Under the pieces are notes generated by a model. That model saw nothing but the letters and a program-made list of their open reading frames with translations. It did no database searches and had not been told where the DNA came from. The translations under genes were made by a program, and so were the position numbers. Shown here one piece after another: positions 31,617 to 50,522 of a stretch of DNA of 64,000 bases (position 1 is the stretch's first letter; each line of letters begins with the position of its first letter). Source of the stretch: a virus; the IMG/VR virus record IMGVR_UViG_3300042485_001041, positions 1 to 64,000 of that record. One strand, written 5' to 3'.

Positions 31617-33656
31617 ATGTCGTTATTTTCATTTAAGTTAGCCGAAGAGTTTGTGGCTCCGTATCGATCAAAGCAAGCGCCATTTGGATACCGAGATGCT
31701 GCTGGTAACTCCGTAGGTGAGATCACTTTCTTGCGTACCTATTCACGCCTTAAGGCAGATGGTACGAAAGAAACTTGGGTCGATGTCTGCGAACGAGTCA
31801 TCAACGGTATGTACTCGCTTCAAAAGGATCACGCCAAAGTAAGTCGCCTACCTTGGTCAGATGCCAAGGCAGCCTCATCTGCTAAAGAAGCCTTTGATCG
31901 ACTCTTCCAACTTAAGTGGACACCACCTGGCCGAGGACTATGGGTAATGGGAACTTCGCTTGTCAATGAACAGCGCAACTCCGCAGCCCTTCAAAACTGC
32001 GCCTTCGTATCTACGGGATCAATGACCAAGAACGATCCAGCAAAGCCATTCGCATTCCTAATGGAAGCATCAATGCTCGGAGTGGGCGTTGGCTTTGACG
32101 ATAAGGGTGCAGATAAAGAATTTAACATCTATGAACCACAAGGAGAATACACCTATGACATCCCAGACACCAGAGAAGGATGGGTCGAGTCAACCGCAGC
32201 CCTCATCAATTCCTTCCTACGACCAGATTCGAAAACTCCAGTATTTGGTTACGAAGCGATCCGCCCAGCAGGTGAACCGATCAAGACGTTCGGTGGAACC
32301 GCAGCGGGAGCAGACCCCTTAATTCGTTTACATAACTACATCACTAAGATGTTTACTGGTCGTGCTGGCCAGAAACTAACTCGTGTAGATATTGCTGACA
32401 TCGGAAACATGATTGGTGTTTGCGTTGTATCAGGCAACGTTCGTAGATCAGCAGAGTTACTTATTGGTCGTGTAGATGACCAAGACTTCCTTAACCTAAA
32501 GAACGCAGAGAAGTTCCCAGAGCGTAACTCTTACGATCCTGCTAACCCAGGTTGGGCTTGGATGTCTAACAATTCTGTGGCTGTTAATGTCGGAGATAAC
32601 CTAGATAACATCATCGATGGCATCGCTCGTAATGGTGAGCCAGGAGTTATCTGGATGGACATCTCTAAGCAATATGGTCGCCTTGCTGACCCAATCAACA
32701 ACAAGGACTGGCGCATTGCTGGTTACAACCCCTGTGCTGAACAATCACTTGAATCTTACGAGTGTTGTACTTTGGTTGAAACTTACTTAAACCGTCACGA
32801 GAACCTTGAAGACTTCAAGCGCACTTTAAAGTTTGCTTATCTTTACGCTAAGACTGTTACTTTACTTCCAACTCACTGGGAAGAAACTAACGCCATCATG
32901 CAGCGTAACCGCCGTATTGGTACATCTGTATCTGGTGTTGCTAACTTCGCAGATAACAAAGGACTTCCAATTCTGCGTCAATGGATGGATGAAGGTTACA
33001 AAGTTATCCAAGGCTACGATAAGACTTACTCCGAATGGCTTGGTGTTCGTGAGTCAATCAAGATGACTACTGTTAAGCCATCAGGCACAGTAAGTATCTT
33101 GGCTGGTGAAAGTCCAGGAGTTCACTGGACTGTTGGTGGTAAGTATTTCTATCGCGCTATTCGTTTTGCTAATAGCGATCCGATGCTTCCGCTATTCCAG
33201 ATGGCTAACTACCGAGTAGAACCCGCATCGGAATCGCCCGAAACAACTTCTGTTGTATTTTTCCCAGTAAAGTCTGAGGCTAAAAGAAGTGAGAAGGATG
33301 TAAGTATCTACGAGAAGATGGCACTCGCTGCTACTGCTCAACGATACTGGTCTGACAACTCTGTATCTGTAACTATCTCTTTTGATCCAGAGACAGAAGC
33401 CTCGGCTATTGGTACGGCTTTACATATGTACGATGGTCAACTAAAGACTGTTTCGTTCTTGCCTTCTGGTAATGCTATCTACCCACAGATGCCTTACACA
33501 CAGATTACTGAAGAAGAGTATGAAGCAGAGGGAGTAATGAAACTATTCCCTATCGATCTTGCTGGTGTCTATGCTGGTATGGCTTCTGATGCTATTGGTG
33601 AGGCTTACTGTACGACTGATGCTTGCGAAGTGAAGTTAATTAAAGATAACCAGTAA
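31617..33656 (+). CDS. nrdJ: Class II (B12-dependent) ribonucleotide reductase
   Basis: RTYSR, PPGRGLW, NCAF, GNVRRSA, NPCAEQ, TTVKPSGTVS, C-terminal CTTDAC. Confidence 0.92.
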   Translation: MSLFSFKLAEEFVAPYRSKQAPFGYRDAAGNSVGEITFLRTYSRLKADGTKETWVDVCERVINGMYSLQKDHAKVSRLPWSDAKAASSAKEAFDRLFQLKWTPPGRGLWVMGTSLVNEQRNSAALQNCAFVSTGSMTKNDPAKPFAFLMEASMLGVGVGFDDKGADKEFNIYEPQGEYTYDIPDTREGWVESTAALINSFLRPDSKTPVFGYEAIRPAGEPIKTFGGTAAGADPLIRLHNYITKMFTGRAGQKLTRVDIADIGNMIGVCVVSGNVRRSAELLIGRVDDQDFLNLKNAEKFPERNSYDPANPGWAWMSNNSVAVNVGDNLDNIIDGIARNGEPGVIWMDISKQYGRLADPINNKDWRIAGYNPCAEQSLESYECCTLVETYLNRHENLEDFKRTLKFAYLYAKTVTLLPTHWEETNAIMQRNRRIGTSVSGVANFADNKGLPILRQWMDEGYKVIQGYDKTYSEWLGVRESIKMTTVKPSGTVSILAGESPGVHWTVGGKYFYRAIRFANSDPMLPLFQMANYRVEPASESPETTSVVFFPVKSEAKRSEKDVSIYEKMALAATAQRYWSDNSVSVTISFDPETEASAIGTALHMYDGQLKTVSFLPSGNAIYPQMPYTQITEEEYEAEGVMKLFPIDLAGVYAGMASDAIGEAYCTTDACEVKLIKDNQ

Positions 33657-33679
33657 CGCTTCTGGTATTGCTTTGGCTT

Positions 33680-33710
33680 AAGCCCTGCCTTCTGGTAGGG
33701 CTTTTGCTTT
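33680..33710 (+). terminator. Intrinsic terminator after nrdJ
   Basis: AAGCCCTGCC-TTCT-GGTAGGGCTT followed by T-rich tract, at convergence of the two strands. Confidence 0.6.
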
Positions 33711-33712
33711 TG

Positions 33713-33841
33713 CTATGGCTTTGGTTCTAACTTGTCTACATAACTACCGATTGGCTCTGCGTGTTCATCACAGCAGAGTGAGCCATCTACCCAGATGTAC
33801 CATTCAACTGGTTGTAAGCAATCCTCAACATAGCAATTCAT
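33713..33841 (-). CDS. 42 aa Cys-containing peptide (not in ORF track)
   Basis: MNCYVEDC...LCCDEH; ATGA overlap with upstream gene. Confidence 0.45.
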   Translation of the reverse strand: MNCYVEDCLQPVEWYIWVDGSLCCDEHAEPIGSYVDKLEPKP

Positions 33842-34230
33842 GCTTCTGGTATCGCTTCACAAACAAACCCACTATGAGAAGCAAGGATTCGCTCACATAA
33901 GACGCTATTTGCCATCATCTTGCCCTGCTTCTTGGTAAGTCCTTTGGCTGGGTGGGTATCTAAGATGTTGTTACAGGTAGGACAGACAAGCACAAAGTTA
34001 TTTTTTAGCGGGGGTCTGTCGCCGTAGGTCTGTATCTTCCAACCCAACTGAACTAACTTGCCCCAGAACAGTTCTTCTACCTCAATGTCGGCAAAGGGCT
34101 CACTCCAGTCAAGAGGTAACTCTTCCTGATGCCAACCCTCTTGGTAGGACTTACTTCGAGAGTGCTCTTGCTTTTCGTAGTGCTTCTGCTTCAACTCCTG
34201 CTGATGTTGCTTGTACGGATCTCTGATCAT
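33838..34230 (-). CDS. Hypothetical protein
   Basis: GGGGG RBS; CPTC. Confidence 0.55.
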   Translation of the reverse strand: MIRDPYKQHQQELKQKHYEKQEHSRSKSYQEGWHQEELPLDWSEPFADIEVEELFWGKLVQLGWKIQTYGDRPPLKNNFVLVCPTCNNILDTHPAKGLTKKQGKMMANSVLCERILASHSGFVCEAIPEA

Positions 34231-34285
34231 TTAATGCCCCCTAACTAACTAACTTCACCTGGCAGCCAGGTAGAGTTACTTTGGA

Positions 34286-34319
34286 GATAGCCCCCCGTCA
34301 TTTCTGACGAGGGGCTATC
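34286..34319 (-). terminator. Hairpin after the transglycosylase gene
   Basis: GATAGCCCC(CC)GTCA / TGACG(A)GGGGCTATC. Confidence 0.5.
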
Positions 34320-34324
34320 CCGAT

Positions 34325-34915
34325 CTACTGCGTTTTTGCTTCTGCTATGGCTTTTGCTTTTGCTTTCGCTATTGCTTTGGCTTTGACTTCAGGGAACTTT
34401 GCCAGCCATGCTTTCGTTCTGGCTGTCATACCTTTCCACGAAGCCCAGTTTTCGCCCCCGTTGCTCATGTGATAAGCAATTTGGGCGTTAATCACAGGGT
34501 TTAGCAATTCGGCATTAGATTCTAAGCCAAACTTTTCTCTGCGATCTGCGCCTAACCCACCGATCATATTGATCTGGAATACTCCGTATGAACTGTCACC
34601 AGTCTTACGATTTCCGTTATAGGCGAGTGGTCGACCATTTGATTCTTTCTTCGCTACTGCCCATGCTTCTCGTAGGTCTTTCCCTTCGAACCCAACCGCA
34701 TTTAGTAGTTCTACTAACTGGTGGTCAGTCAAAGAGTCCGAGTTATGATACTTGGACAGGATTACTTCTTCGTATTGCTTTACTGCTACTAACGCTTCGG
34801 CTCTGGTCGGAGTAAAGGCTGGCGGTAAACCGACAACCCCATTAAGTACCACGAACATCGCTGTAAACAGCGAACCGAATACGATCTTGCCTTTTCGAGT
34901 TAGTTTCATCATCAC
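34325..34915 (-). CDS. Membrane-anchored lysozyme-like lytic transglycosylase
   Basis: N-terminal TM; AVAKKES.G, GVFQIN, L.NP..NA, W..W. Confidence 0.8.
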   Translation of the reverse strand: MMMKLTRKGKIVFGSLFTAMFVVLNGVVGLPPAFTPTRAEALVAVKQYEEVILSKYHNSDSLTDHQLVELLNAVGFEGKDLREAWAVAKKESNGRPLAYNGNRKTGDSSYGVFQINMIGGLGADRREKFGLESNAELLNPVINAQIAYHMSNGGENWASWKGMTARTKAWLAKFPEVKAKAIAKAKAKAIAEAKTQ

Positions 34916-36189
34916 TCCAAATAGTCATTGACAGTTTCACCTGCTTTTGACTGGTTGTGACGAAGGCGATGTAAGTATCGCTCTGTCGTCTGTATTGATT
35001 GGTGACCTAGTCGCTCTTTGACCTCATGGACATCTACCCCGTTTTTTAATAACTGGGTAGCGTTTGCGTGCCTGAGATCGTGAGTTCTAGGCTTCCAATC
35101 TATGCCTGACTTGGCTATTGCTTTGTTCCAGATCGTTCTCCATACATCTCGTGGAAGGTGACTCGATTGATCGATAAACCCCTGTTGCTTCTGGTATGGC
35201 TTCTGGTATGGCTTTGCCTTTTGCCTATGCTTTCGCACCGACTCTCGGCAATCACCACACCTACAACCGCCATGCGTGTAGGCATACAGAGTTCCATGCT
35301 GGAACTGTTTTCCGTCTTTTGCGAATGGTCGCTCAGACATTTTATTCTCTCCACGAGAAGCCTCTATTTTACTTTCTATGGTCACTAGTGACTTAGGGAA
35401 GAGCAGATCATCTTTTGCTAGGGCTTTAGCCTTGACATGAGCCTTAATCTCATGTAACAGGGCTTGGCTTAACATAAGGCTTCGCTTATGACCTGACTTG
35501 GTCGCATCGACTACCAAGAATCGACTGCTATGGCTTTTGCCTAGATCGCTCACTCTTCGCTGTACGAACACCTCTCCCGAAGTGAAGTTGATGTCTTTGA
35601 CTCGCAACTCGGTGGCTTCACCGAATCGGCAACCCGAAGCGATCAAGAATTGCGCGAATAATTGGGCATTCTTATTCGGTAAATGCTTAATTATGGACTT
35701 GAACTGCTCTGGCTCTAATACCTGCTGTAAGTCGGCATGGCGTTGCTTAATCCTTATCCCATGAGTCGGGTTACTGGCTAACTCACCCGTCTGGACTAGT
35801 CGCTTAAAGGCAGACCCCAGAGAGGCTTTGACTTGCCTCAGCGTTGCTGGTTGAACCCCACTTAACTTCAACTCTTCCAGCAGGTGAACTAACTTTCGGC
35901 GGTCAATGGAAGTTACTTTGAGATGCCCGATCTTTGGCAGGGCATACTGCCTAAGCACCGACTCGTAACCCTTACGGGTGATAGGCATGAGATCAGCAAC
36001 GGGCAACCACTCTTCGATATAGGTGGATAGGGTCATAGAAGCCCTAGAAGCCCCCTCTGAATCCGATCGCTCGGCTTGTAAGGCGTGGTATTCGGCTTCG
36101 GTTTTCGTATCCCAAGTGCCAGCAGAGAGCCGTTTACCGCCCTTGCGATAATAGCCAGTCCAACGATCTTTACGCTTTACGGCATACAT
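34912..36189 (-). CDS. int: Tyrosine recombinase/integrase with inserted HGT-CRCxxC module
   Basis: SGCRFGE (R), TKS (K), HDLRH, LGH......T..Y catalytic residues. Confidence 0.9.
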   Translation of the reverse strand: MYAVKRKDRWTGYYRKGGKRLSAGTWDTKTEAEYHALQAERSDSEGASRASMTLSTYIEEWLPVADLMPITRKGYESVLRQYALPKIGHLKVTSIDRRKLVHLLEELKLSGVQPATLRQVKASLGSAFKRLVQTGELASNPTHGIRIKQRHADLQQVLEPEQFKSIIKHLPNKNAQLFAQFLIASGCRFGEATELRVKDINFTSGEVFVQRRVSDLGKSHSSRFLVVDATKSGHKRSLMLSQALLHEIKAHVKAKALAKDDLLFPKSLVTIESKIEASRGENKMSERPFAKDGKQFQHGTLYAYTHGGCRCGDCRESVRKHRQKAKPYQKPYQKQQGFIDQSSHLPRDVWRTIWNKAIAKSGIDWKPRTHDLRHANATQLLKNGVDVHEVKERLGHQSIQTTERYLHRLRHNQSKAGETVNDYLE

Positions 36190-36214
36190 AACTAACTTCC
36201 CCCTTCCGCTGCGT

Positions 36215-36272
36215 GTTACTCGTGAGTAACCTACTGCTGAGTAATGTTACTGGTCAGTAACTTAAAGGTCAA
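36215..36272 (-). promoter_or_regulatory. Sigma-70-type promoter of the recombinase overlapped by three palindromic operators
   Basis: Minus strand TTGACC-17 nt-TAACAT (36272-36244); GTTACT-N4-AGTAAC at 36215 and 36246, degenerate copy at 36230. Confidence 0.7.
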
Positions 36273-36306
36273 AAAATAGCCCCTAGACCAGAACCGATCT
36301 AGGGGC
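36271..36306 (-). terminator. Intrinsic terminator ending the early operon
   Basis: GCCCCTAGA / TCTAGGGGC stem followed by TATTTTTT on the minus strand. Confidence 0.75.
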
Positions 36307-36361
36307 GTAAAGGCTAAGGCTTAGGGAATCTGCTCTGAAGTAACTTGCGGTCGGTCGCGGG

Positions 36362-36389
36362 AAAGTTACTTCACGCTCGAAGTAACTTT
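36362..36389. other. dif/loxP-like recombination core site (11-6-11)
   Basis: AAAGTTACTTC-ACGCTC-GAAGTAACTTT, about 170 bp from the recombinase start. Confidence 0.6.
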
Positions 36390-36416
36390 GGGCGGATACC
36401 TTCAGCAGAGTTAGAG

Positions 36417-36614
36417 TTACTTATCCAGTTCAATCTCGATCTGGTTTGCTCTCTTACTCTGCCATTCGGTGATCGTTTCTTGCTTCCAGATAGGCGTTCG
36501 CCCCATGTAGCGATCTGGCTCTGGAAGGGTGCTTCGCTTTCGATAGGTGTAAATCGTTTCCACCTTTAGACCCGTTAAGGTAGCGATGTCGGTACTTGTT
36601 AGCCATTCGCTCAC
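36417..36614 (-). CDS. AlpA/excisionase-like HTH protein
   Basis: WLTSTDIATLTGLKVETIYTY....LPEPD..GRTPIW....I.EW. Confidence 0.75.
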   Translation of the reverse strand: MSEWLTSTDIATLTGLKVETIYTYRKRSTLPEPDRYMGRTPIWKQETITEWQSKRANQIEIELDK

Positions 36615-37087
36615 TTAGTTTCACCATTCTTTGATTTAGTTTCATCTGGATTTTTTCCCCACTTCAATTCTCTAGTTTGGGCATCTGCCCATAGATAGGG
36701 CGATGAAATACCTACTTTGAAATCGTAATACTCTGGTGCTTTACGCTTTAAGTTGCTCTGGTGCGATAGGTGTAACACTTCATCACCAACCCAGAATGGA
36801 AGTCCTGTATCTGGAAGTAACGCATGAACTGCCACGAATCTAGCGAGCATCGTGTCCTGATAGCCCCTAGCACGCCACTCCATACAGATAGCCATTCCGT
36901 ATTCGCATAGAGCGCGTTCATAACCGCGCCACATTTTAACAGCAGGGTGATTAACCCAACCTTCGCTATTACCGAGAAGAGTATTAAGAATCTGCCACGC
37001 TTCAACGCGCTGTTTACCTAATCGCCTGTAATCAAGTGCCATAGCAGTTTTACCGAACTCGGCATAAGGCATGAATGTATTAACCAT
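36611..37087 (-). CDS. Pyrimidine-dimer glycosylase-like protein (MSMEG_6728/DenV family)
   Basis: TFMPY......LD.RRLGKQRVEA.QI, GW.NHPAV.MWRGYE, SHQSNL.RK.PEYY. Confidence 0.8.
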   Translation of the reverse strand: MVNTFMPYAEFGKTAMALDYRRLGKQRVEAWQILNTLLGNSEGWVNHPAVKMWRGYERALCEYGMAICMEWRARGYQDTMLARFVAVHALLPDTGLPFWVGDEVLHLSHQSNLKRKAPEYYDFKVGISSPYLWADAQTRELKWGKNPDETKSKNGETK

Positions 37088-37249
37088 TTATTTTCTCCAT
37101 GTAATTTCGCCATGAGTATCGCATTCGAACTCGATAATAGTTTCTTCTCCGCGTAAGTAAGTACCGCAATTTTCGCAATAACCTTCATCTACAAGATGTG
37201 GCATAGTCCAACCGCATACATCTGAGCAATCGCATTCTTCGGTTTCCAT
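37088..37249 (-). CDS. Small Cys-rich protein (not in ORF track)
   Basis: CDC...C, CENC, C..H. Confidence 0.5.
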   Translation of the reverse strand: METEECDCSDVCGWTMPHLVDEGYCENCGTYLRGEETIIEFECDTHGEITWRK

Positions 37250-37251
37250 AA

Positions 37252-37521
37252 TTAAAACTCCTTCGCTACTGATTGATACTTGTGGCGTTGCTCTCTGCGC
37301 TTTAAGTTCTGGCGTTCACCTTCGGTAAGTCCACCGAAGATCCCGTAAGCGACATTATTAGTTAGCGCGAAAGTAAGGCACGCATTCTTATCTGCTGGCT
37401 TACAACTGGCGCATAGTGACTTTGCTTCGTGAATCTTTAAGTGTTCAGTCGGGTCTGGAAAGAATATATCTGGGTCATTAGCCGACTGACAGGGCGCATC
37501 TATGATCTCGTATCTAGCCAT
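37252..37521 (-). CDS. whiB: Second WhiB-family protein
   Basis: C....DPDIFFP, AKSLCASC......CL, GIFGGLTEGER. Confidence 0.8.
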   Translation of the reverse strand: MARYEIIDAPCQSANDPDIFFPDPTEHLKIHEAKSLCASCKPADKNACLTFALTNNVAYGIFGGLTEGERQNLKRREQRHKYQSVAKEF

Positions 37522-37819
37522 TATCTTTGCCCTTCTTATAGTCGATGAATGTATCTAGCATCTCGCTTAACTCTTCTGGCGTTACTTCTGCTAGTCGAGT
37601 AAGAATCTCGATAACTGTAAGCATTCCCCAGATTAAGTATTCAGGGTCGAGTTCATGCTTTGCCATGATCTCGTTTAAGTGTTCATTAGCGATGTGAGTC
37701 TGAATCTCTTCTGGAAGATGATCTTCTCGCTCTGACTCCAACTTAAATCCGCGACATAACTTCAAGAACTCGTTAGCAAGTTCGATTGAATTAACTCTTA
37801 ATTGCTCTTCACTACTCAT
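37514..37819 (-). CDS. Hypothetical protein
   Basis: Coupled ORF with RBS. Confidence 0.55.
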   Translation of the reverse strand: MSSEEQLRVNSIELANEFLKLCRGFKLESEREDHLPEEIQTHIANEHLNEIMAKHELDPEYLIWGMLTVIEILTRLAEVTPEELSEMLDTFIDYKKGKDNG

Positions 37820-37958
37820 TTATTTTCCCCTTCTGTAAGTAAGTGCTTTCAATCTGACGCACTTGTAACCGAGTTAGTTCGAATTGATCTGCGACTGTTG
37901 CTAGTGACTTACCAGCAAGTCGAAGATCGACTATCTGTTTTTTTATTTCATCGTTCAT
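37812..37958 (-). CDS. Small sigma region-4-like HTH protein (not in ORF track)
   Basis: IVDLRLAGKSLATVADQFELTRLQVRQIE. Confidence 0.55.
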   Translation of the reverse strand: MNDEIKKQIVDLRLAGKSLATVADQFELTRLQVRQIESTYLQKGKINE

Positions 37959-37991
37959 AATAGGTATTCCATTCTCTAGGTAAATAAATAG

Positions 37992-38134
37992 TTAGTAGAG
38001 ATCGCTCAGAAGTAGAACGGGTGCGTGTAATAGGCTCGGACTCGAAAGTCGGTACAGCCCATTAATCTGATCAGATTTTCGTACACTCTTTTCAGTCTTA
38101 TCGAAGTCTGCTAGGTGTGAACGATCTCTACTAA
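37992..38134 (-). ncRNA. Structured RNA element A
   Basis: 17-bp closing stem (G-U pair valid on minus strand only); internal AAUGGGCU/AGCCUAUU helix and GACU-UUCG-AGUC hairpin. Confidence 0.55.
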
Positions 38135-38141
38135 TAATGGA

Positions 38142-38270
38142 ATCGAGCAGGGGCAGGTATAACTCTTTTCAACAGCGCGGAAAGTACGCTGAGGACTGTC
38201 ATGGCTATCCTTCAAGGGTAAGGAGTGGGTCATAGAAGCCCAGTTAACCCCTTGTTTACCCCCACTCGAT
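38142..38270 (-). ncRNA. Structured RNA element B
   Basis: AUCGAGUGGGGGUA / UGCCCCUGCUCGAU closing stem with three G-U pairs; several internal hairpins. Confidence 0.5.
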
Positions 38271-38275
38271 AAGTT

Positions 38276-38524
38276 TTATTCTTCTTCTGGCTCGCAATCG
38301 CAATCTTCTTCTGCGTGTTCATCGCAATTCCATTGGCAGTTTTCACCGACCCAATCGTTGACATGACCAACGCATACATCTAACGCATCGTCTGCGATCT
38401 CGTGTCCGTCTGCCATACCTTTGAAGTCCGATGAATCCCACCATGTAATTACGATCTCTTCTTTGAGATCAGTTGCGTAAGTGCGATTAAGTATTTCGAT
38501 CGCTTCTTTAACTGTAACTATCAT
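38276..38524 (-). CDS. Acidic hypothetical protein
   Basis: Coupled ORF. Confidence 0.55.
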   Translation of the reverse strand: MIVTVKEAIEILNRTYATDLKEEIVITWWDSSDFKGMADGHEIADDALDVCVGHVNDWVGENCQWNCDEHAEEDCDCEPEEE

Positions 38525-38677
38525 TTATTTATCCAATCCGTAGCACTCGACCATTGATTTGAAGCAGTAATGATCGCCAACCCAGTTGATGTGGTTAACG
38601 ATCGCACCAATAATTAGTAGAACGATGATCGAACTGATGATCGCTACTACCCAACCTAACTTAGTTAAATTATTCAT
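38525..38677 (-). CDS. Small membrane protein
   Basis: MNNLTKLGWVVAII... single TM; TAATG coupling. Confidence 0.55.
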   Translation of the reverse strand: MNNLTKLGWVVAIISSIIVLLIIGAIVNHINWVGDHYCFKSMVECYGLDK

Positions 38678-39258
38678 TACGCAACCCTCTCTAGGTACAT
38701 TCGGTATCTCCATGAGTTTCGTTCGATAAGAGTTTTCTCTTGGTGGCAACTAGCGCAACGAATCACGCACTTATTAATCTCGCGTTGGATTATGTGTGAC
38801 GGGTAATTCTTTAAGACTCCGTTGCTGATGTCGAAAAGTTTTTTACCGCGCACATGGTCGAAGGTTGCTTGAAGCGGATTAATCATTCCGCAATCAACGC
38901 ATGGCTTCTGGTAATAACGAAATACAAGTCTGCGAGCAGGACTCTCTTTCGTTATGTGATTGTGCTTTTGTATCGCACTAACGCATGGTTTACATCTACC
39001 TTCTCGACTTGGTTTGCGCCCTTTGCGATTTGCTAATTGAAATGATGAAATTACTTTCACCTTCTCGCATGATGAACACTTGCGTTTGCCTTTGGCTTCT
39101 AGTGCTAATCGTTTAGCAGTTCGATCTGCCGAAGTTTTACGCTGAATAGACTGGCAACGCTTACACCTTGCGCGTTTTCCATACTTGCCGTCAACGAACT
39201 TATTAAACTCTTTGAGTGGCAAGTCCTTGAAGCAACCTAAGCAGTTTTTAGTACGCAT
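38677..39258 (-). CDS. Zinc-finger/HNH-like endonuclease
   Basis: Repeated CxxC; CVDC...FDHV.G.K...EINKC...CASCH. Confidence 0.7.
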   Translation of the reverse strand: MRTKNCLGCFKDLPLKEFNKFVDGKYGKRARCKRCQSIQRKTSADRTAKRLALEAKGKRKCSSCEKVKVISSFQLANRKGRKPSREGRCKPCVSAIQKHNHITKESPARRLVFRYYQKPCVDCGMINPLQATFDHVRGKKLFDISNGVLKNYPSHIIQREINKCVIRCASCHQEKTLIERNSWRYRMYLERVA

Positions 39259-39966
39259 TTAATCCCAATCAGTAGTTAGTCCTGCGAGAGAGAGAGTTTT
39301 ATACTTTAGATCGTCATGGTTAGACGGCGTTACATAACCAACCACGAATCTACTTCCAGTAGTCGCAACGATCACGCCTCTACGCAATCGACCATGAGCC
39401 TGAACCCATACCCTGTCACCAACGAAGGCGTTATATGGTGGCTTCGCGTTCTGCCAACTACCTTCGTATTGTTCACCAGCAAGCGAGATCAGTTCATTTT
39501 TAATAGCGCGAATCTTTGAAAGTATCTCTAATTTATCTTTCGCCACTTTCATAGTTTTAGCCATTGATCTACCGCGACCGATACCGCACACCACCGCATG
39601 ATGAGTTAGCCAATTTAACTCTGCGTTATCATGCTTCGTGCCGATCTCCCACGCATACGCCGTATAAACATTTACTAGTTTAGTTTCACCATAACCACCA
39701 ACCAGAGAAGCATCAACGCTGTAATGAGAAGTTAACGGGTTGCCATTAACATCTAAAACTTCTCGCATTGAGTATCTAACTTCGGTGATAATTAGTTGAA
39801 AGTGATCTTTGAAAGTTTCTTCATGGAAGATAGTTTCAATAACTTTTATCTCGTGAGTTGTATCCATGAACTTGTAACTATCAGGCTGTCTGCGACCAGT
39901 CCATTCGTTAGTGTGGAAGTGATACTTCTCGTAGCACACTTTGAATCGATCTAAGAAAATACTCAT
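39259..39966 (-). CDS. Hypothetical protein
   Basis: Coupled ORF, 235 aa. Confidence 0.6.
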   Translation of the reverse strand: MSIFLDRFKVCYEKYHFHTNEWTGRRQPDSYKFMDTTHEIKVIETIFHEETFKDHFQLIITEVRYSMREVLDVNGNPLTSHYSVDASLVGGYGETKLVNVYTAYAWEIGTKHDNAELNWLTHHAVVCGIGRGRSMAKTMKVAKDKLEILSKIRAIKNELISLAGEQYEGSWQNAKPPYNAFVGDRVWVQAHGRLRRGVIVATTGSRFVVGYVTPSNHDDLKYKTLSLAGLTTDWD

Positions 39967-41054: not shown

Positions 41055-42980
41055 TTAGTTTCGAACGAGTCTGCGAGTGATCGCGTACTTCACGATCTTT
41101 CGAGCCATTCCAATTAGATCGAGTGGATTATTAATAACCGCACCGATCTCGCAACGATGTGAAGTTTCACTATCGAGAACGATCTGTTCGTTTGAATTGG
41201 GAATGTATGCGAACGCCGTTAACACGCCAGCACGAGCCATTCGATCGATCGCATCGTGAGTTTGCTTTAAGTCACCGCCCCATTCTCCGTCAGTAATGGC
41301 GAAGAAAATACGAACTGGTTTATCAGTTTCGGCAAGTAACTTAGTCGCGTACTTAACGGCTTGATCTGGCTCAGTACCGCCACCAGCACCAGCATCTCGA
41401 ATCACGCCAGTTGCTTTATCTTTTGCGCGATACAGCAGGTTAGTATCACTATTGAAAGTGATAACAGTTGTATTCGCATTGATCTTGTCGAGTGCGCGTT
41501 TAATTGCGTACATCGCCTTGTATGCCTTCTCTGCCTTATGACCAGACATCGAACCAGAGTTATCGAGAATGACTACGCATTCGATCTCGCAAGCATCTTC
41601 GATACCTTCATTCCATGAATCGAAAACAGTTTCGATGTCCTCTCCACGCAAGTAACGCCCTGCGTGTAAGCGACCACTCGACTCGTAAGTTTCCCAAGCA
41701 GGGTCATACGATGATTTCAACCGCAACAGTTCACGAGCGAATGTTGCTGATGCTTCAACAGTTTTAGAATCAGGGCGAAGCGAATTAAATCGCTCTAACT
41801 CTGGCTCTTTAGCGTTATTGGTAGCAAGAGAAGGTAAGCCACCAATCTGGCGCATGATGTCGCGGATTTCATCTGCGATCTCGGCACTAGTAAGAATGTC
41901 ATTCAGAGTTGATTGAAGTAACTCTGCTAGTTCGTTACCGACTCCGTCAGAACTTTCATCGTTGATTTCATCGTCACCATAATCTTCGAACTCGACTTGA
42001 TCGATGTCTAATTCGATAGTTGGTTTTGATTTCATCTTCTCTGCGAGTTCGGCATCGTCTGCCTGATCTAATTTAGAAGCACGATCTGAATCGCGCTTCT
42101 GTTGTTTAGGTGGTTGAGGGCGTGAAGCCATAGAGGACTCGATACCTTCGTGTGGGCGATTGCCATGACCGAATGGGTCATTGAGAATGACATTGAAATC
42201 GCCTTCTTTGCCCTCTCCAGCAGGTTTAACTTTGATCTGGGTGCTTCCACCTTCACCAGAGCCGTCACCGCTTCCAGAGCCGTCACCTTTGGGCAACAGC
42301 GTATGGAATCGCGCTATTAATTCTTTCCCTTTTTCAGTATCAGTAGGGAATACAAGTAAGCGATAAGCATCGACTATCTCGCATATTTCAGCGATATTTT
42401 CTTGCTCTGGATACGCATTACGAGAGTTCGCTCTAATTTGAACAGGTAAGTATCTGCGACCACGAAGTAGCGGATACGAATTAACGAAGGCATCTGGCTT
42501 CTCTACGAAGTGAATCAGAATCGTAGAAGTAAACCAATCAACAGTTGAGGGATAGCGAGTAGTAAATAAAGTTTCTATTCGCTGATCTTCAAGTGCGTTA
42601 TATGCCGAGAAGTAATTGTTATCTCTAACGAACTCGAAGATGTCTGAACCTTCTCGTGCTGTATAGAGAATGTGACTGATCTCGTGAAGATCAAGCCCTT
42701 TAAGTCCAGCGATTGATTTAGCATCATTTAGATCGCCAATTAATCGTGAATTAAAAGTTACTTCACTAGCACCAGAGTAAGCAGGTGAGTTCATCGATGA
42801 ATGCTCGACCTTTACAGTCACCTTGCGGAAAGTGAATGCTGAGTTCACTCGACCGAATAAGTGACAGAAGCGTTCGATCTTCTGGCGATGTAGTTCTGCT
42901 TCATCGCGCTGGCGCATTAGCGCACCAGCATCTAGCCCTTGTAGAAGTTCATCTACTTGGTCATGTATTGAACCGCGCAT
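41055..42980 (-). CDS. vWA-domain protein with N-terminal HExxH domain (CobT-like)
   Basis: HEISH, NALEDQRIE, acidic linker, LDNSGSM MIDAS, GGT, TDG. Confidence 0.85.
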   Translation of the reverse strand: MRGSIHDQVDELLQGLDAGALMRQRDEAELHRQKIERFCHLFGRVNSAFTFRKVTVKVEHSSMNSPAYSGASEVTFNSRLIGDLNDAKSIAGLKGLDLHEISHILYTAREGSDIFEFVRDNNYFSAYNALEDQRIETLFTTRYPSTVDWFTSTILIHFVEKPDAFVNSYPLLRGRRYLPVQIRANSRNAYPEQENIAEICEIVDAYRLLVFPTDTEKGKELIARFHTLLPKGDGSGSGDGSGEGGSTQIKVKPAGEGKEGDFNVILNDPFGHGNRPHEGIESSMASRPQPPKQQKRDSDRASKLDQADDAELAEKMKSKPTIELDIDQVEFEDYGDDEINDESSDGVGNELAELLQSTLNDILTSAEIADEIRDIMRQIGGLPSLATNNAKEPELERFNSLRPDSKTVEASATFARELLRLKSSYDPAWETYESSGRLHAGRYLRGEDIETVFDSWNEGIEDACEIECVVILDNSGSMSGHKAEKAYKAMYAIKRALDKINANTTVITFNSDTNLLYRAKDKATGVIRDAGAGGGTEPDQAVKYATKLLAETDKPVRIFFAITDGEWGGDLKQTHDAIDRMARAGVLTAFAYIPNSNEQIVLDSETSHRCEIGAVINNPLDLIGMARKIVKYAITRRLVRN

Positions 42981-42990
42981 GGAGTCCTCT

Positions 42991-43860
42991 CTAAGCGTTC
43001 GCGTACTCGGTTGTAATGGACTCTACGGCTATGCCCAAGTCCTCTTTGATGTTGTAACCAGCACCTTCTAAGAGCATCTTTACAGCAGGTCGCTCTTCTT
43101 CGGTGAAGTTATTAGTAAAGATTTCGCACGCTAGATCGTATGACAATTCTTTCGAAATCTTCTCGAAAGTTTTTAGAATGCGAGATGTAATTGGAGTTTC
43201 GAAGATCGTTGCGTTATTGGAGTGTGAACCACTAGAAGATGTAGAGCGCATTCCGTAAGCAAGATCAAGCAGAGCAGGTGAAGCGATGTATTGACTTTCA
43301 ACAGCGCGATCGAAATCGTAATGAAGTTTGATCTCGAAGCGATCTGCTAATTGCTCTGGTAGTGGTTGAGAGCCACGATAGTTTGGATTGAAGTCAGCGA
43401 TGATTAATAGATCAGGGTGCGCCTTAATAACTTCGCCCTTGTGTCCTAGAAGCGTAATAACACGCGAGAAGTCCAGAAGTGGAAGTACGAAGTGTTTAGC
43501 GTTCTTGGCTAACTTATCGATCTCACCAAGATTGAGAATGCCACCATGACGAACTAAGTTTACGATCTGCGAATCGACCCACTCTAGTTTTCCATTTTCA
43601 TCTGGCACATAAGAGCCTTGAAGTTCCGAAGCACTTAATGAATCGTTCGAAGGCACATTGTAATAAGGCAAGCCACGAAGCGAAGCGATGTATTGAGCGA
43701 ATGAAGATTTACCAGTACCAGAATGTCCGAAGTTAAGGATATTCATTTTGTTTTTGATTGCGTAATCTGCGATTGCGATTTCAGATACGCCAGCGAATGA
43801 TCGTGGCACATAATGCGCCATTGAATCGAGCGAAGGTATAAATTGGTTGATCGTTGACAT
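42991..43860 (-). CDS. MoxR/CbbQ/CobS-like AAA+ ATPase
   Basis: GHSGTGKS, GGILNLGEID, HPDLLII, NPNYRG, LADRF. Confidence 0.85.
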   Translation of the reverse strand: MSTINQFIPSLDSMAHYVPRSFAGVSEIAIADYAIKNKMNILNFGHSGTGKSSFAQYIASLRGLPYYNVPSNDSLSASELQGSYVPDENGKLEWVDSQIVNLVRHGGILNLGEIDKLAKNAKHFVLPLLDFSRVITLLGHKGEVIKAHPDLLIIADFNPNYRGSQPLPEQLADRFEIKLHYDFDRAVESQYIASPALLDLAYGMRSTSSSGSHSNNATIFETPITSRILKTFEKISKELSYDLACEIFTNNFTEEERPAVKMLLEGAGYNIKEDLGIAVESITTEYANA

Positions 43861-43919
43861 GTTATTCCGTTTCTCTAGGTGATTGGTTTGGTTTTATTTT
43901 CTTACTTATTAAGTTGTAG

Positions 43920-44060
43920 TTACGAATGGATAGTGAGTAGCAAGTAACTCGGCATGGAATGGGTTGGGCTTCGCGGTCACTACGGCTAAAGATCAGCGGT
44001 AGCGAAAGGATTGTCGCGCCATGTGATGTCTGGATACAGGTGGTCACTATCCATTCGTAA
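43920..44060 (-). ncRNA. Structured RNA element C
   Basis: Perfect 17-bp inverted repeat TTACGAATGGATAGTGA enclosing a multi-hairpin interior. Confidence 0.55.
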
Positions 44061-44063
44061 TTC

Positions 44064-44336
44064 TTATTCATAGTCAGTTGTAACAGCATCTACATTCTTA
44101 GCGATTATTTTAGAAGCCAGATATACATCTTCTAACTCACTCGCTAATTCTTGGAATTGATTAAAGATCGCGCACTCTTCATCGATCGCTGGACATAACT
44201 TGTCCATGATTGATTGAAGAAGTTCGGTCACCTTCTCTGGTGCTGGTTCATCTCGATCTAACGCGTTCTCTAACGCCATTCCAAGAATGGTGCTGGCGAG
44301 TCCGAGTTCATCGAGTGTGAAAGTAATCTTTGCCAT
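44064..44336 (-). CDS. Hypothetical protein
   Basis: AGGGG RBS. Confidence 0.55.
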   Translation of the reverse strand: MAKITFTLDELGLASTILGMALENALDRDEPAPEKVTELLQSIMDKLCPAIDEECAIFNQFQELASELEDVYLASKIIAKNVDAVTTDYE

Positions 44337-44350
44337 TTATTTATTTCCCC

Positions 44351-45037
44351 TTACTGATAATGAGAAGCGCACCACTTGCCCATGCCAGCCACTACGGACT
44401 TTTGAAGGGTTAAGGTGCGGTGACAATGAACGCAAGTGCCAGTAGCGATACCGAATGCGGAAGCATCAGTAAGTGATAGTCGATCAGTTGCTTTAAGAGT
44501 TGCCAACACTTTTGAATTAAGAGTCCAAGATTTATTTATTGGGTCATACTCTAAAGCGAAGAGTCGATCACTATTTCGAAGTTTGCGTACTGAGTAATAA
44601 GTTTCATTAACTCGATACGCACCGACAGTCGCTTCGATGATTACTTCTAACTTTGGAAGCATAACTAAATAAGTGATAAGCACTTTCGCTTGATCGCGTG
44701 TTAGTTGGTGATACGAGTCAACCGAATAGTGAGTAGTGATCTCAGTAAGTTTCTCTTGCGCCTTCTGGCGAGTTTGAAGTAAGAGATCGATGTATCCAGA
44801 CTGCTTCTCACTAATTCGATCTTCAACCTTCTTAGGACAAGCAAGTAATTGCTCGATGATGCGAGAGGCGTGCTTCTTGTTTACCTGCTCGGCGTTAGCG
44901 ATCTCGAACTCATGTATGCGTTCATCTAACAGGCGTTGAATAAATCGTGCCTGTGCTGGTGAGCAGTATTTAACAGCGAACTCGCCGTACTGATTGCTGG
45001 CAGGTGCGCCAGCAGGTTTGCCTTTAGTAATTGACAC
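44351..45037 (-). CDS. Hypothetical protein with C-terminal zinc finger
   Basis: S..Q..(F/Y)I..LL repeats; CVHCHRTLT...S...GMG..C. Confidence 0.65.
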   Translation of the reverse strand: MSITKGKPAGAPASNQYGEFAVKYCSPAQARFIQRLLDERIHEFEIANAEQVNKKHASRIIEQLLACPKKVEDRISEKQSGYIDLLLQTRQKAQEKLTEITTHYSVDSYHQLTRDQAKVLITYLVMLPKLEVIIEATVGAYRVNETYYSVRKLRNSDRLFALEYDPINKSWTLNSKVLATLKATDRLSLTDASAFGIATGTCVHCHRTLTLQKSVVAGMGKWCASHYQ

Positions 45038-45039
45038 TT

Positions 45040-45324
45040 CTATTCCCCCTCTTCTGAGTTACACCAAGCATCTAGCCGTAGTGACTCGATAATTTGACTA
45101 GCGATCATGTCCGTTCTACCTTCACGAGTTTTTACCTTCTCTGGTAGATCAATTAAGCGATCGTAATCGCCTTCATTAATAGCGTTGATTGAAGCGATAG
45201 CAACTGGAAGCATGATTAGTGGTACTGGTGGATAGCAATTTGATGTTAAGTGAATTGTTAATTGCTGTTCGATTGAATTAACGAACTCGCCAGAAGCAAG
45301 TTCGATTGCGTGAATAGAACCCAT
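45040..45324 (-). CDS. Hypothetical protein
   Basis: HLTSNCYPPVP segment; RBS. Confidence 0.6.
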   Translation of the reverse strand: MGSIHAIELASGEFVNSIEQQLTIHLTSNCYPPVPLIMLPVAIASINAINEGDYDRLIDLPEKVKTREGRTDMIASQIIESLRLDAWCNSEEGE

Positions 45325-45410
45325 TTAGTTATTCCCCTCTAGTGATTGAAAAGTTAATGCGATTGCTGTACCGATTATTGAAGCGATGATTGCGAGTAAA
45401 AAGATAGTCA

Positions 45411-45704
45411 TTAGATCGCTCTCCTTACATAACCTTGATGCTTCGAAGTTGTAGTTGAGTATTTGACATTCGGAATAGTCCAACCGAACTTTCCATGCCA
45501 TGCGATTGGAGTGCCATACGAATACACGATGTAATCGGGGAACTCAGTTGCCAGTTGAAGTGCCAAGTGACTATCTAAGCGACCAGTAGAAGGCGAGAAC
45601 TCTTCACAATTAGGTGAGATCACATAACCAGAGAAGTTGTTACCTTGAAATGCCACGCGATTATGAATTAGTACGCCAGCCTTTTGGTTTGATGATTTAG
45701 TCAT
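45411..45704 (-). CDS. SYGTPIAWH-family protein
   Basis: YIVYSYGTPIAWHG..GW....KYSTTTSKHQG.VRRAI. Confidence 0.7.
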   Translation of the reverse strand: MTKSSNQKAGVLIHNRVAFQGNNFSGYVISPNCEEFSPSTGRLDSHLALQLATEFPDYIVYSYGTPIAWHGKFGWTIPNVKYSTTTSKHQGYVRRAI

Positions 45705-45868
45705 TAGTTATTCCCCTTTAGTTTTCCAGTAAAAGATAATTCGATGATGAATGCTCGGTTATATGCCAAGAAGTTTTCAAGATCGCCAATAGTTTCGAAA
45801 TCCTCTTTACGATTAAAAATCTCTTTGCGATTCCATTGATTAACGATGCGATAAGTTGCTGTAATCAT
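45704..45868 (-). CDS. Small hypothetical protein (not in ORF track)
   Basis: MITATYRIVNQW..., TAATG-coupled on both sides. Confidence 0.5.
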   Translation of the reverse strand: MITATYRIVNQWNRKEIFNRKEDFETIGDLENFLAYNRAFIIELSFTGKLKGNN

Positions 45869-46035
45869 TATTTAGTACCTGCGATCTTCAAGTTCTTGAT
45901 TGCGTTGAAGTCGAAAGTTGAGTAATAACGAGTTCCGTCATTTAGTAGTAAGTCGATGCTCGAAGGTGTGATGCGACCACGAGCGATGATTTTGCCGTCT
46001 TTATCTATGAACACTTGATCGGTATTTTTCTTCAT
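45868..46035 (-). CDS. Small hypothetical protein (not in ORF track)
   Basis: MKKNTDQVFID..., AAGGG RBS. Confidence 0.5.
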   Translation of the reverse strand: MKKNTDQVFIDKDGKIIARGRITPSSIDLLLNDGTRYYSTFDFNAIKNLKIAGTK

Positions 46036-46125
46036 TTCGTTTCCCTTTGTTTTTACTGGTGAAATTGATTATCGATTTGATAACCACCACATCGCACCGA
46101 TTTACTCGATGCGATGTAGAAGCGA

Positions 46126-46506
46126 TCAGATAGTTAGAAGTCGAAGTGCTGAGTGAATTGATTTACCGAGTTGTAACGCACGCTGTTGCGCCTCTTCTGT
46201 CAGTTCAACTCGATTGCCGTCACGAACTGAATTGGGAAAGTAACCCTTGCCAGCGCACAGAAGAGAAGTCCAGAGAAGATCGAGTTCGCTCTGGGTAAGT
46301 GTGATCGTTGCGGTTGGTTCATCGGTAGCAATAGCCGACCAGCACCATGAGCAGAAGCCGTCACGAGTTGCGATTACATCAGTTCTAGTTGCTTGAAGAT
46401 GATTAATACAATGAAGGCTCTGGCACTTTTGAATTGAAGGTGCTGTTGAAGTAATTTCGCCTAGTTTCATTTTCTTTCCATTCCAGTAATGATTAATTGA
46501 ATACAT
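46126..46506 (-). CDS. Hypothetical protein, first ORF of the early operon
   Basis: C....C / CSWC; true start may be the internal MKLG. Confidence 0.5.
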   Translation of the reverse strand: MYSINHYWNGKKMKLGEITSTAPSIQKCQSLHCINHLQATRTDVIATRDGFCSWCWSAIATDEPTATITLTQSELDLLWTSLLCAGKGYFPNSVRDGNRVELTEEAQQRALQLGKSIHSALRLLTI

Positions 46507-46510
46507 CGAG

Positions 46511-47200
46511 TTATGTATTCACCCCACTAGTAACCAGAGATAGATCGCTGTCTATTTACCAGTTACTAGTAGAGAAAACACATAAGCAGATAATTACTAA
46601 TTGAGTTGCCCAGTTCGTTCACTATGCTTCATGCGGATTGGTTACCGATTGCGCTGTTATTAACAGATAGTCCATGTGAACTGGATTCAATCTCCATAAT
46701 TATTTTCCCTAAGCCATATCTGCTATTCACAATTAATTTCTTAATCGTTGGAGTTGTTTACATTTAATGAAGTTAATCGCTCGTTATTAGTAGTAATCGC
46801 TAGTTAATAAATAGTGGATTCTATTTATTCATTCATCGCGTAGTAATAAGTTTTCGCAATTAGATTTTCATCTCTTGAATTATTCGCTCGTTATTCGTAA
46901 TCGCATTCACTAATAGCATCTAGTAGATAGATCGCTTTCGCCTTAGTTAGTTATTAATCGAGTTCATTGGTACAGAACACAATTAAAAGAATGCGATTCG
47001 TAATCGCAGATTTTCTTAGCCTCTATTTAATTAAGTTATTTAGTAACGATCGCCAGTTGAGTACCGCGCCTTAGCGTTGTTAGTTCGGGTCAGTTCACCG
47101 ACCATTACTAAATAACTTTGAGCATTTTTCACTTCTGATTAATAAACCGATCAGTTGCCCCTAGAGGATTCTGAAAAGATCGATCGTTGGTCGCGTGCGC
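46511..47200 (-). ncRNA. Long hairpin-rich untranslated leader or ncRNA cluster
   Basis: No ORF; long stems at 46511-46585, 46586-46723, 46806-46829 and 47033-47118, two of them with minus-strand G-U pairs. Confidence 0.5.
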
Positions 47201-47209
47201 TATGGGAGA

Positions 47210-47239
47210 AATGTACCACTCAGCCCGATCAGTTGATAA
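47210..47239 (-). promoter_or_regulatory. Candidate early promoter
   Basis: Minus strand TTATCA-18 nt-TACATT with extended TG. Confidence 0.4.
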
Positions 47240-48022
47240 CAGGCTCGATCTATTTACTCCGCGTTGCCGATCTAATTGTTAAGCCGAATGAGCGTGCGTG
47301 GGATTGAGCGTAAATACACCTGAGAGGGCGTAGAAGGGGTCTAAGAGCCGAGTACCCCCAGTTTGAAGGTAATCACCCCAGAGCAGGTGAGATCGTGGCT
47401 CATAGGGCGCGTGTGGAGAGGGGTGTTTATGCGTTAATGTCCGAATTGCCCGATATATGTAAGTCCACGCCGACAATGTGAAAGTTAGATAGTTAGATGC
47501 GCCGATGCGCCAGAGCCAGATGAAATTGCGCCGATGTATTTTTTTTCTCAGTATTAACAATTTAATCACTAAGAGAGAGTAGAGAAGATAAGAAGAAAAC
47601 AATTAAGAGGGAGATGTAATTAATTAATGATTAGTAGAAAAGATTATCCATTAGTTGATCGAGTTGATTCAAACAGCAGATTTAATTTATTGATGTGGTT
47701 AGCGAAGTACCAGATGAATAACCCCGATGTAGTAGAGATAGAGATTGATTCACATAACTATTAATAAATAATAATAAATAATAAATGATCGATGTGATGA
47801 TGTGATCGATGTGAACTCGAATAGCAGGTGGTTAGTACCTGATAACAACTGGGTGGCACACCTGACAGTCTGGTGTTACGCGCACAGCCACGCCACTTGC
47901 CAGAGCAGTAGCCGAAGATCGTGTCACCAAGATTGTCACCAAGTTAGTTAATCAATAACTATTTACGCTCATGTTAACTAGTTCGCACCTGACTAGTAAT
48001 CAGGAGTAATTGTTAACACCGA

Positions 48023-48047
48023 CCCCCACCCCCTACCCCACCCACCC
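48023..48047 (-). other. G-quadruplex-forming motif
   Basis: Minus strand GGGTGGGTGGGGTAGGGGGTGGGGG, five G-tracts with 1-2 nt loops. Confidence 0.6.
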
Positions 48048-48140
48048 TTAATCGCACGCACGCAAGTGCCGAGCCAGGTGTCAGACACGGTTGACGACTT
48101 TTACGCTGAGGCAGTGCGGATTTTAAGCCATAATCGCCAT

Positions 48141-48749
48141 ATGCCCGCTCACAGCGTCTGCCGCACCTGCGGAAAGAAGATTAAGCAAGAAGGCTCCACT
48201 TGGAGTTCTCATTTGGGCGATAAGTGCTGGGGCAAGGGCACCCACAACCCCGTTCACACCGTTATCTCAGAAGGCTTAAAATCGGCCCCAGTATCAGTTC
48301 CTAGTCGTTTGCTTAATGAAACCTTGTTTCGTGGGTTGCCAGGTACTAAGTTGGAGACTCCACTTGGAATGCACTGGTCATCTGTATCGGGGCTTGACCA
48401 CGTTTCTGGTTATTCGGGAGGAATAGGTAGTGGCGCTAGTCTATTTTCTGGCGGAGAAGGTAAAAAGGGCGAGAAGTCAACTATCATTCACGCTAAGGTA
48501 AACAACCGAGCAATCATCAACCCTCGCTCATCAGAGGGTAAGAAGATGGCTGGTCGTCATCAAATTTGGGGCGGAGGAGCCCCTGAGTACGAAGAGACGG
48601 TTCGCCCTGGTGCAAACGTTGAAGTAACTAAGTTAACTCGTGTACGTAACGTTACCGATGCCTCTCATGACGAATCTGGTAAGTACACTCCAGCGGTAAC
48701 AAAGCAACGAGAGATCCGTTACAAGAAACCAAGACAGGTACAAGCATAA
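48141..48749 (+). CDS. ART-like protein 1
   Basis: LFRG, GMHWSS, EYEETVRPG; start placed at ATG 48141, 6 nt after CATAAT. Confidence 0.6.
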   Translation: MPAHSVCRTCGKKIKQEGSTWSSHLGDKCWGKGTHNPVHTVISEGLKSAPVSVPSRLLNETLFRGLPGTKLETPLGMHWSSVSGLDHVSGYSGGIGSGASLFSGGEGKKGEKSTIIHAKVNNRAIINPRSSEGKKMAGRHQIWGGGAPEYEETVRPGANVEVTKLTRVRNVTDASHDESGKYTPAVTKQREIRYKKPRQVQA

Positions 48750-50455: not shown

Positions 50456-50522
50456 GCCTTACCTCCCCTAACTAATATTTTTTTATTCAGTAAAAGTAAG
50501 GCAGTAGCCTTATCCTTACCAT

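Follow-up and report, generated by a model that had tools for sequence, protein, structure and literature searches.

A block of a lake-virus genome purged of restriction-type words and its possible role as first-entering DNA

The window analysed here is the first 64 kb of the 81,218-bp virus contig IMGVR_UViG_3300042485_001041 (G000), in which all genes lie on the plus strand except for a single leftward cluster (33838-47602). This cluster, a 1.5-kb mostly non-coding region upstream of it and the last 0.75-1.3 kb of the neighbouring gene nrdJ make up a stretch purged of many short sequence words, and this stretch (32903-48283, the block) is the subject of the present work. Outside the block, the contig encodes terminase, portal, capsid, collagen-like fibres, baseplate, DnaB, primase, helicase, PolA, a UvsX-like recombinase and nrdJ. 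The contig is classed as linear by IMG/VR, its completeness according to CheckV is ~81%, and the absent part apparently corresponds to tail genes between the contig ends. The runs that hold this sequence (24, available as assembled contigs only) are lake-water metagenomes.

Expected counts were taken from the share of the contig that the block represents, except where Markov expectations are named. TGCA, ACGT and GGCC have no copy in the block, against 55, 35 and 22 expected (binomial p 3e-27, 2e-17 and 2e-11, respectively), and the within-block Markov expectations for the same words are 61, 30 and 31. The depletion of these three words, which an earlier inspection of the letters by eye (the original prediction) had reported, is therefore present in computed counts as well, and the edges it had assigned are exact: ACGT is missing between its copies at 32437 and 48400, GGCC between 32367 and 48284, and TGCA between 32899 and 48370. 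The suspected loss of GCWGC and CCWGG was also confirmed, with no GCNGC from 36208 to 48160 and no CCWGG from 34266 to 48074, and the conspicuous GATC and TCGA turned out to be enriched 2.5- and 4.3-fold in the block, where CGCG is enriched 4.6-fold. As had been described, the right edge is sharp, every purged motif being back within 48074-48400, and the left edge is graded, spread over 32.4-36.2 kb.

The purge is wider than could be seen by eye, as at least 12 further words are near zero. Among the degenerate palindromes, the observed and expected counts are 0/13 for GGNCC, 0/11 for RGCGCY, 1/15 for GWGCWC, 0/18 for CTRYAG, 0/16.5 for WGTACW and 21/56 for CANTG. Ten of the 12 six-bp palindromes for which at least 4 copies were expected have none, including AGTACT, CAATTG, TCTAGA, TTTAAA (0/8) and AGCGCT. 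Asymmetric words are affected too: GGATG (0/19), CCATC (2/32), GTCTC (0/16), GGAGC (0/18) and CACGG (0/11), the first three of which are the sites of FokI-, BccI- and BsmAI-type enzymes. The purge affects only palindromes and words like those of known type IIS enzymes, and it does so in coding and non-coding DNA alike.

Several other origins of this pattern were rejected or judged unlikely. When the 120 non-palindromic 4-mers were counted in strand-symmetrised form, none fell under 0.33 of its density outside the block, with 3 of the 14 palindromes at zero, which speaks against a strand or compositional artefact. A general avoidance of palindromes or cruciforms (hairpins) does not agree with TCGA, GATC and CGCG being enriched 2.5-4.6-fold, and selection at the RNA level, for example by mRNA interferases, is unlikely, since most of the words are palindromes and the 1.5-kb non-coding region lacks them as well. 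The dipeptides Met-His, Met-Gln and Trp-Pro occur 0 times in the block proteins, against ~6 expected; the first two force TGCA and the third forces GGCC. Selection thus acts at the protein level too.

The VWA protein encoded in the block, used as a query, recovered 33 IMG/VR loci with identities of 32-74%, and the same analysis in these relatives, which the original prediction had called for, gave a block-limited purge in 32-33 of them. Around the VWA gene, GGCC is absent from all 33 loci, GCNGC and CCWGG are each absent from 32, and ACGT is missing over at least 6 kb, or from the entire locus, in 32; the purged words do occur in the flanks of these loci, wherever flanks are covered. TGCA is purged in 8-10 of the 33 loci, and absence from the whole locus is seen for AGCT (32/33) and CCGG (30/33). 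Three near-complete relatives, G004 (97 kb), G005 (96 kb) and G001 (87 kb), were analysed in full, and in each of them the block is the sole purged region. Some words have been lost genome-wide in particular lineages (GATC in G004 and G005, CGCG in G001), and others from the block only (ATAT in G004 and G005; GTAC in G004 and G001; TGCA in G000, G001 and G004, but not in G005). Since identity between these genomes is 40-65% for block proteins and 77-96% for flanking proteins, zero counts at this divergence need continuing selection, and the differences in motif sets between lineages likewise argue for ongoing selection and not for a recent island. This selection follows differing enzyme repertoires. 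The rightward region at 48-58 kb is equally variable in gene content and shows normal word frequencies, which rules out variable accessory DNA or an island as the cause. A megablast of the block against cultured phages gave no match.

The genome ends are known for a cultured relative, the Streptomyces myophage LuckySocke, with which the contig is collinear gene for gene (TerL 53%, portal 55%, major capsid protein (MCP) 62%, PolA 38%). The LuckySocke record is linear, its first 344 bp being the same as its last 344 bp (a direct terminal repeat). From the left end, it shows 25 kb of small rightward genes followed by the terminase, and a single cluster reads leftward (103.6-113.7 kb), inward from the right end that it abuts; in BRock, Alone3 and GiJojo, too, the terminase is found at 22-26 kb from one end of the record. 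A homologue of the DUF6011 gene of the block is present in the LuckySocke terminal cluster, and no homologues of the VWA/AAA pair or of the integrase were detected in LuckySocke. By this synteny, a physical end or a short terminal repeat is predicted within 47.6-48.07 kb of the contig, in the interval bounded by the starts of the first gene read leftward (47602) and the first read rightward (48066), so that the genome end proposed earlier near 48 kb stands as a prediction from gene order. This end would fall on the sharp edge, at which every purged word is back within ~330 bp, and a 190-bp non-coding element (47906-48096) is conserved there in the four lake genomes (4/4). In the right-terminal 14.5 kb of LuckySocke, AGCT occurs 27 times against 60 expected (p 3e-7) and GCWGC 15 times against 41 (p 7e-7), a 2.2-2.8-fold depletion that amounts to a milder version of the signature, and this region carries an annotated ArdA-like anti-restriction gene.

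Table 1. Position, strand and assignment of the features in the block and at its two borders.
Feature	Position	Strand	Basis or remark
nrdJ, 3' part (B12-dependent ribonucleotide reductase, gene 31617-33656)	32903-33656	+	Pfam RNR_Alpha and RNR-II insertion domain
Convergent intergenic region with copies of the 12-bp repeat TGSTAKKGCTTT	33656-33838		Repeat search
130-aa open reading frame, beyond a terminator-like hairpin (~34285-34320)	33838-34230	-	Without homologue in the three full relatives
Lysozyme-like (SLT_3) protein, last conserved operon gene	34325-34915	-	PF18896, E 3e-15; 61-65% identity in relatives
Tyrosine recombinase/integrase	34912-36189	-	Pfam Phage_integrase, E 1e-26; conserved in G001, G004 and G005
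Non-coding control region	36190-36610		Inverted repeat and palindromes; GCNGC gone rightward (last at 36208)
Pyrimidine-dimer DNA glycosylase (denV-like)	36611-37087	-	PF03013, E 7.5e-21
WhiB-family transcription factor	37252-37521	-	PF02467, E 1e-15
HNH/endonuclease VII-like zinc-finger protein	38677-39258	-	phrog_2255, E 3e-26
Three proteins, no informative family	39259-41027	-	First two conserved in relatives, 40-50% identity
VWA (CobT-like, 641 aa) and AAA_5 MoxR-like ATPase (289 aa) pair, block marker	41055-43860	-	Pfam
Promoter-proximal small open reading frames, mostly lineage-specific	43862-46506	-	Most without homologue in relatives
DUF6011 protein	44351-45037	-	30% identical to LuckySocke gene 218 (right-terminal cluster)
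Largely non-coding region (~1.5 kb) between divergent gene sets	46507-48065		Fully purged; predicted genome end inside
First rightward gene, start	48066-48400	+	CCWGG, GCNGC, GGCC, TGCA and ACGT return

The features of the block are collected in Table 1. Anti-restriction functions had been expected among its small genes, an expectation that its content does not bear out: Pfam and PHROG scans of the open reading frames of the block recognised none, nor any homologue of the T5 proteins A1, A2 and dmp. No Ocr- or ArdA-like gene was recognised in the block, a PADLOC defence search gave two weak matches only, and a protein Atlas search with two conserved uncharacterised block proteins returned nothing usable. 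A promoter scan found sites no more frequently than in shuffled sequence, and there are no Rfam families at 32-49.5 kb and no tRNAs in the 64-kb window. The control region contains a perfect 11-6-11 inverted repeat, AAAGTTACTTC-N6-GAAGTAACTTT (36363-36390), upstream of the recombinase gene, and two GTTACT-N4-AGTAAC palindromes (36215-36263) just upstream of the same gene, which together form a possible core site or operator set. The proteins of the cluster (33838-47602) are rich in Cys (70 against 29 expected) and His (112 against 69), which suggests many small zinc-binding proteins in the block. The GC skew changes sign inside the block, from negative at 33-42 kb to positive at 42-48 kb with the coding strand constant, and the local minimum that the cumulative skew thereby reaches near 42 kb may correspond to a replication origin or to a mere change in gene type.

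Other observations concern the rest of the genome and its host. The WhiB gene, the Streptomyces and Gordonia phages that are the nearest cultured relatives, and the capsid relatives found in actinobacterial chromosomes point to an actinobacterial host. These capsid relatives (50-69% identity) are embedded in large contigs of chromosomal DNA from Streptomyces, Nonomuraea, Actinomadura and Terracoccus, so that the wider lineage includes integrated prophages. A leader of the type M(A/S)A(S/E)DNLSxxQF is present on at least seven otherwise unrelated small proteins, encoded at 49171-55097 and 25143-26658, and could be a tag for capsid loading. The 501-aa phrog_887-like protein encoded at 29939-31444 has 1,734 homologues in freshwater metagenomes, located on 95-103-kb contigs, and not one of them carries a name or a Pfam domain. 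GTAC is 4-5-fold over-represented in two collagen-like tail-fibre genes (contig 74-80 kb), as it is in the relatives, which is probably a coding repeat.

The distal (left) edge of the block differs between genomes. The depletion enters the 3' part of nrdJ in G000, as the original prediction had noted, with no TGCA in the last 757 bp against 5-6 copies in the orthologues of G001, G004 and G005. The last conserved operon gene is followed by a terminator-like hairpin, and the purge of TGCA, ACGT and GGCC in G000 reaches 1.4 kb past this hairpin, into nrdJ. The further claim that the depletion follows position rather than gene is favoured by the nrdJ spill of this one genome only, position being only weakly separable from the transcription unit. 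The same border contains 11 copies of the 12-bp repeat TGSTAKKGCTTT (core GSTAKKGCTT), all in one orientation, within 33574-35537, with copies at 33656-33838, 34343-34368 and 35114-35527. Clusters in the same orientation exist in G004 (38689-39532), G005 (36633-37476) and G001 (12483-13911), and the repeat is found almost nowhere else. In all four genomes the copies occupy three equivalent sites, one directly behind the nrdJ stop, one where the lysozyme gene ends (3' side) and one in the recombinase gene, ~200 bp before its 3' end. The cluster could be a stop signal at the distal edge or, equally, a set of recombinase arm sites.

Besides the words lost from the block, a second set is missing from the whole 81-kb contig: AGCT, CCGG, CYCGRG, GGATCC, GCTAGC and CGTACG. 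A full protection of the genome at later stages leaves the genome-wide loss of AGCT and CCGG unexplained, because complete protection would make such a loss unnecessary. Either the enzymes that cut AGCT and CCGG escape the protective function, or this genome-wide tier has another cause. For the T5 protein A1, Davison has put forward the idea that a phage nuclease could break down host DNA at words missing from the phage genome (bioRxiv 10.1101/866236), and by analogy a nuclease of the virus itself is one possible cause of the genome-wide tier.

A cut anywhere in the genome would be lethal, so that avoidance limited to a block means that sites outside it are not exposed and those inside it are. 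The simplest route to such a difference is the one that experiments on T5 and BF23 have demonstrated, in which only the DNA transferred first is open to restriction. The reading that we favour, with a probability of roughly 0.55, is that the block is a first-entering early region at a genome end, comparable to those of T5 and T7. According to this proposal, the virion genome would be linear, with fixed ends and a short repeat at its termini, and the block would form an early operon that faces inward from one of these ends. The block end would enter the cell first and, for some time, would be the sole phage DNA that the type II and IIS restriction enzymes of the host could reach, either because entry pauses, as in T5, or because the rest is drawn in by transcription of the operon, as in T7. 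Any target site in the block would then be lethal, and selection would remove the sites for every enzyme that the lineage meets. The operon products, or the delay itself, would shield the remaining 65-85 kb from most enzymes, and the same words would be tolerated there, with a few (AGCT and CCGG, and GATC or CGCG in some lineages) lying outside that protection and avoided genome-wide. In a T7-like variant, the host RNA polymerase would pull the DNA in until an early terminator is reached, which would explain the return of the words within ~0.4 kb of the operon end in G001, G004 and G005. In a T5-like variant, entry would halt at a cis signal, for which the TGSTAKKGCTTT cluster is a candidate. 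What was observed is the specific and sharply or gradually bounded purge, its persistence and changing word sets among the relatives, and the collinearity with a cultured phage of known ends; from these we infer the position of the end, the order of entry, a staged delivery and a protective early function.

A number of observations weigh against this proposal. The genome-wide absence of AGCT and CCGG means that the later protection, if any, is incomplete, and the block is without any recognisable known anti-restriction protein. The far edge of the purge tracks the operon end (within ~0.4 kb) in G001, G004 and G005, and a property of the transcription unit could be the cause of the purge. Assembled contigs bridge 47.6-48.3 kb, and such contigs are uninformative on ends. 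The 127-bp end repeats of G004 and G005, given by IMG/VR as direct terminal repeats, have the length of an assembler word, and the contigs are cut at different places; they are uninformative on physical ends. In LuckySocke, the depletion is partial and the region has a G+C of 0.56-0.58 against 0.53. Moreover, we know of no description of staged entry for contractile-tailed phages.

Among the alternatives, chemical shielding supposes that a protective base modification is present in all of the virion DNA except the early operon, perhaps because the host RNA polymerase transcribes modified DNA poorly, and that the unmodified block relies on the avoidance of sites. The two-tier pattern would fit a modification that blocks many but not all enzymes, with AGCT and CCGG still avoided, and G000 does encode a deoxynucleotide monophosphate kinase (PF21448; 20451-20987) that is not present in G001, G004 or G005. 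The 501-aa protein beside nrdJ matches phrog_887, labelled queuine tRNA-ribosyltransferase, a label that found no support on checking: it has no Pfam TGT or PDB match, its single-sequence fold is unusable (pLDDT 34), and a DpdA/7-deazaguanine system was discarded as there is no PF01702 match in the contig. Searches of the contig (~81% complete) for C5, N6/N4 and D12 methyltransferases, TGT, ThyA, ThyX and PurZ were all negative. ATAT, which has neither G nor C, is purged from the block only in G004 and G005, so that modification of a single base is insufficient for the whole set of words, and no mechanism is known to us by which 12-15 kb of the genome would be kept free of modification. This explanation is therefore held to be unlikely.

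A comparably improbable alternative is that the genome enters at once, with the rest of it coated or sequestered by co-injected proteins, or saved by a fast early inhibitor, and with the operon necessarily naked for its transcription. The purge does coincide in every genome with one transcription unit and its upstream region, and the NLSxxQF-type N-terminal leader shared by at least seven small proteins encoded outside the block is a possible packaging tag. However, in a host with as little as one cognate enzyme, the hundreds of sites that would be exposed outside the block (TGCA 291, ACGT 184) would need complete shielding, no DNA-coating system of such selectivity is known to us, and the nrdJ spill past the terminator is not expected if the transcription unit sets the rule. 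Finally, the data contradict a recent origin of the block in a phage with other word usage, be it as an assembly chimera or as an acquired island, the latter having been named in the original prediction as grounds for refutation, and this reading is highly improbable: the composition of the block does differ (more CpG, with TCGA, CGCG and GATC enriched), its proteins are more diverged than the flanks and an integrase lies inside it, but the block lies at the same place and with the same conserved core genes in all relatives examined (~30 of them diverged, the promoter-proximal small open reading frames being lineage-specific), contigs from four independent runs cover the block, the zero counts need continuing selection with motif sets that turn over between lineages, the equally variable 48-58 kb region is unpurged, cultured relatives share the architecture, and no att-like direct repeats were found flanking the block.

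Returning to the first-entering early region, a more specific and clearly more tentative version of it is that a widespread freshwater family of contractile-tailed phages, probably actinobacterial, uses a two-stage delivery in which a first-entering operon of 12-15 kb encodes a general early shield against at least 12 type II/IIS specificities, AGCT and CCGG not among them, with the TGSTAKKGCTTT cluster as the stop or hand-over signal. If the first-entering reading holds, staged entry and sub-genomic restriction would be extended from T5- and T7-like coliphages to an abundant lineage of uncultured lake myoviruses, and a broad anti-restriction function would reside among the handful of conserved uncharacterised proteins of the block; to our knowledge, the T5 counterpart of such a function has still not been identified. 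In the more specific version, genome ends, entry order and host restriction repertoire could be read, for uncultured viruses, from the contrast in sequence between the block and the rest; the list of purged words would be a footprint of the restriction systems that circulate in the hosts. Block-limited loss of restriction words would, in addition, be a computable signature for predicting ends and leading regions from metagenomic assemblies, one that scoring of site avoidance over whole genomes would overlook.

With regard to known systems, the original prediction invoked restriction through first-entering DNA as an established principle, and the literature on T5/BF23 and on T7-like phages agrees with it (PMC10644984; PMC12455610). 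T5 and BF23 are restricted only via sites in the first-step-transfer (FST) DNA (PMC10644984; bioRxiv 10.1101/866236), and murciaviruses, T7-like phages of Marinomonas, only via motifs in the leading region (PMC12455610). The principle is thus known, and its extreme form in actinophage-like myoviruses was not found reported: full-text searches of the literature retrieved no description of a comparable block from any group of phages, the present one included.

If the predicted end is correct, the FST region of T5 resembles the block in being a terminal segment of ~10-15 kb with (pre-)early genes mostly of unknown function, and in that sites matter only within the segment, those elsewhere being tolerated in vivo (PMC10644984; bioRxiv 10.1101/866236). 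Both have a repeat-rich cis region at the distal border, iss in T5 and the 12-bp repeat cluster here. On the other hand, the T5 FST lies within a 10-kb terminal repeat, whereas the cultured relative of the present virus has a 344-bp repeat; word depth in run X1 (10.2 for a contig wholly in the block, 12 for a contig with block and flank) is a weak indication that the block is not doubled. No 4-mer is purged from the FST, and only a few 6-mers are absent from it, in the T5 record (first 50 kb), compared with more than 15 words at or near zero here, and T5 has no genome-wide loss of a 4-mer (AGCT occurs 213 times in 40 kb), whereas AGCT is gone from this contig. T5 is, moreover, a siphovirus, and the present phage is contractile-tailed and carries an integrase.

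The leading region of T7-like phages enters first, has early genes and a high variability, and is the one region in which restriction motifs have an effect (PMC12455610), as is proposed for the block. For those phages a single Type I motif was studied, whereas many type II/IIS-like words are involved here; they are podoviruses of ~40 kb, and no Ocr-like gene was found in the block. Among cultured phages, the Streptomyces myophages BRock, LuckySocke, Alone3 and GiJojo are the closest relatives; they share the gene order and have one leftward cluster that reads inward, but their depletion is 2-3-fold and not total, their G+C is ~53% and they have many tRNA genes. Lastly, genome-wide avoidance of restriction sites in phages, reportedly described by Sharp in 1986, Rocha in 2001 and Rusinov in 2018, has its likeness here in the words that the whole contig lacks, AGCT, CCGG and several 6-mers. 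Such classical analyses take the genome as one unit, whereas in this virus a second and much broader tier of avoidance is confined to one-fifth of the genome.

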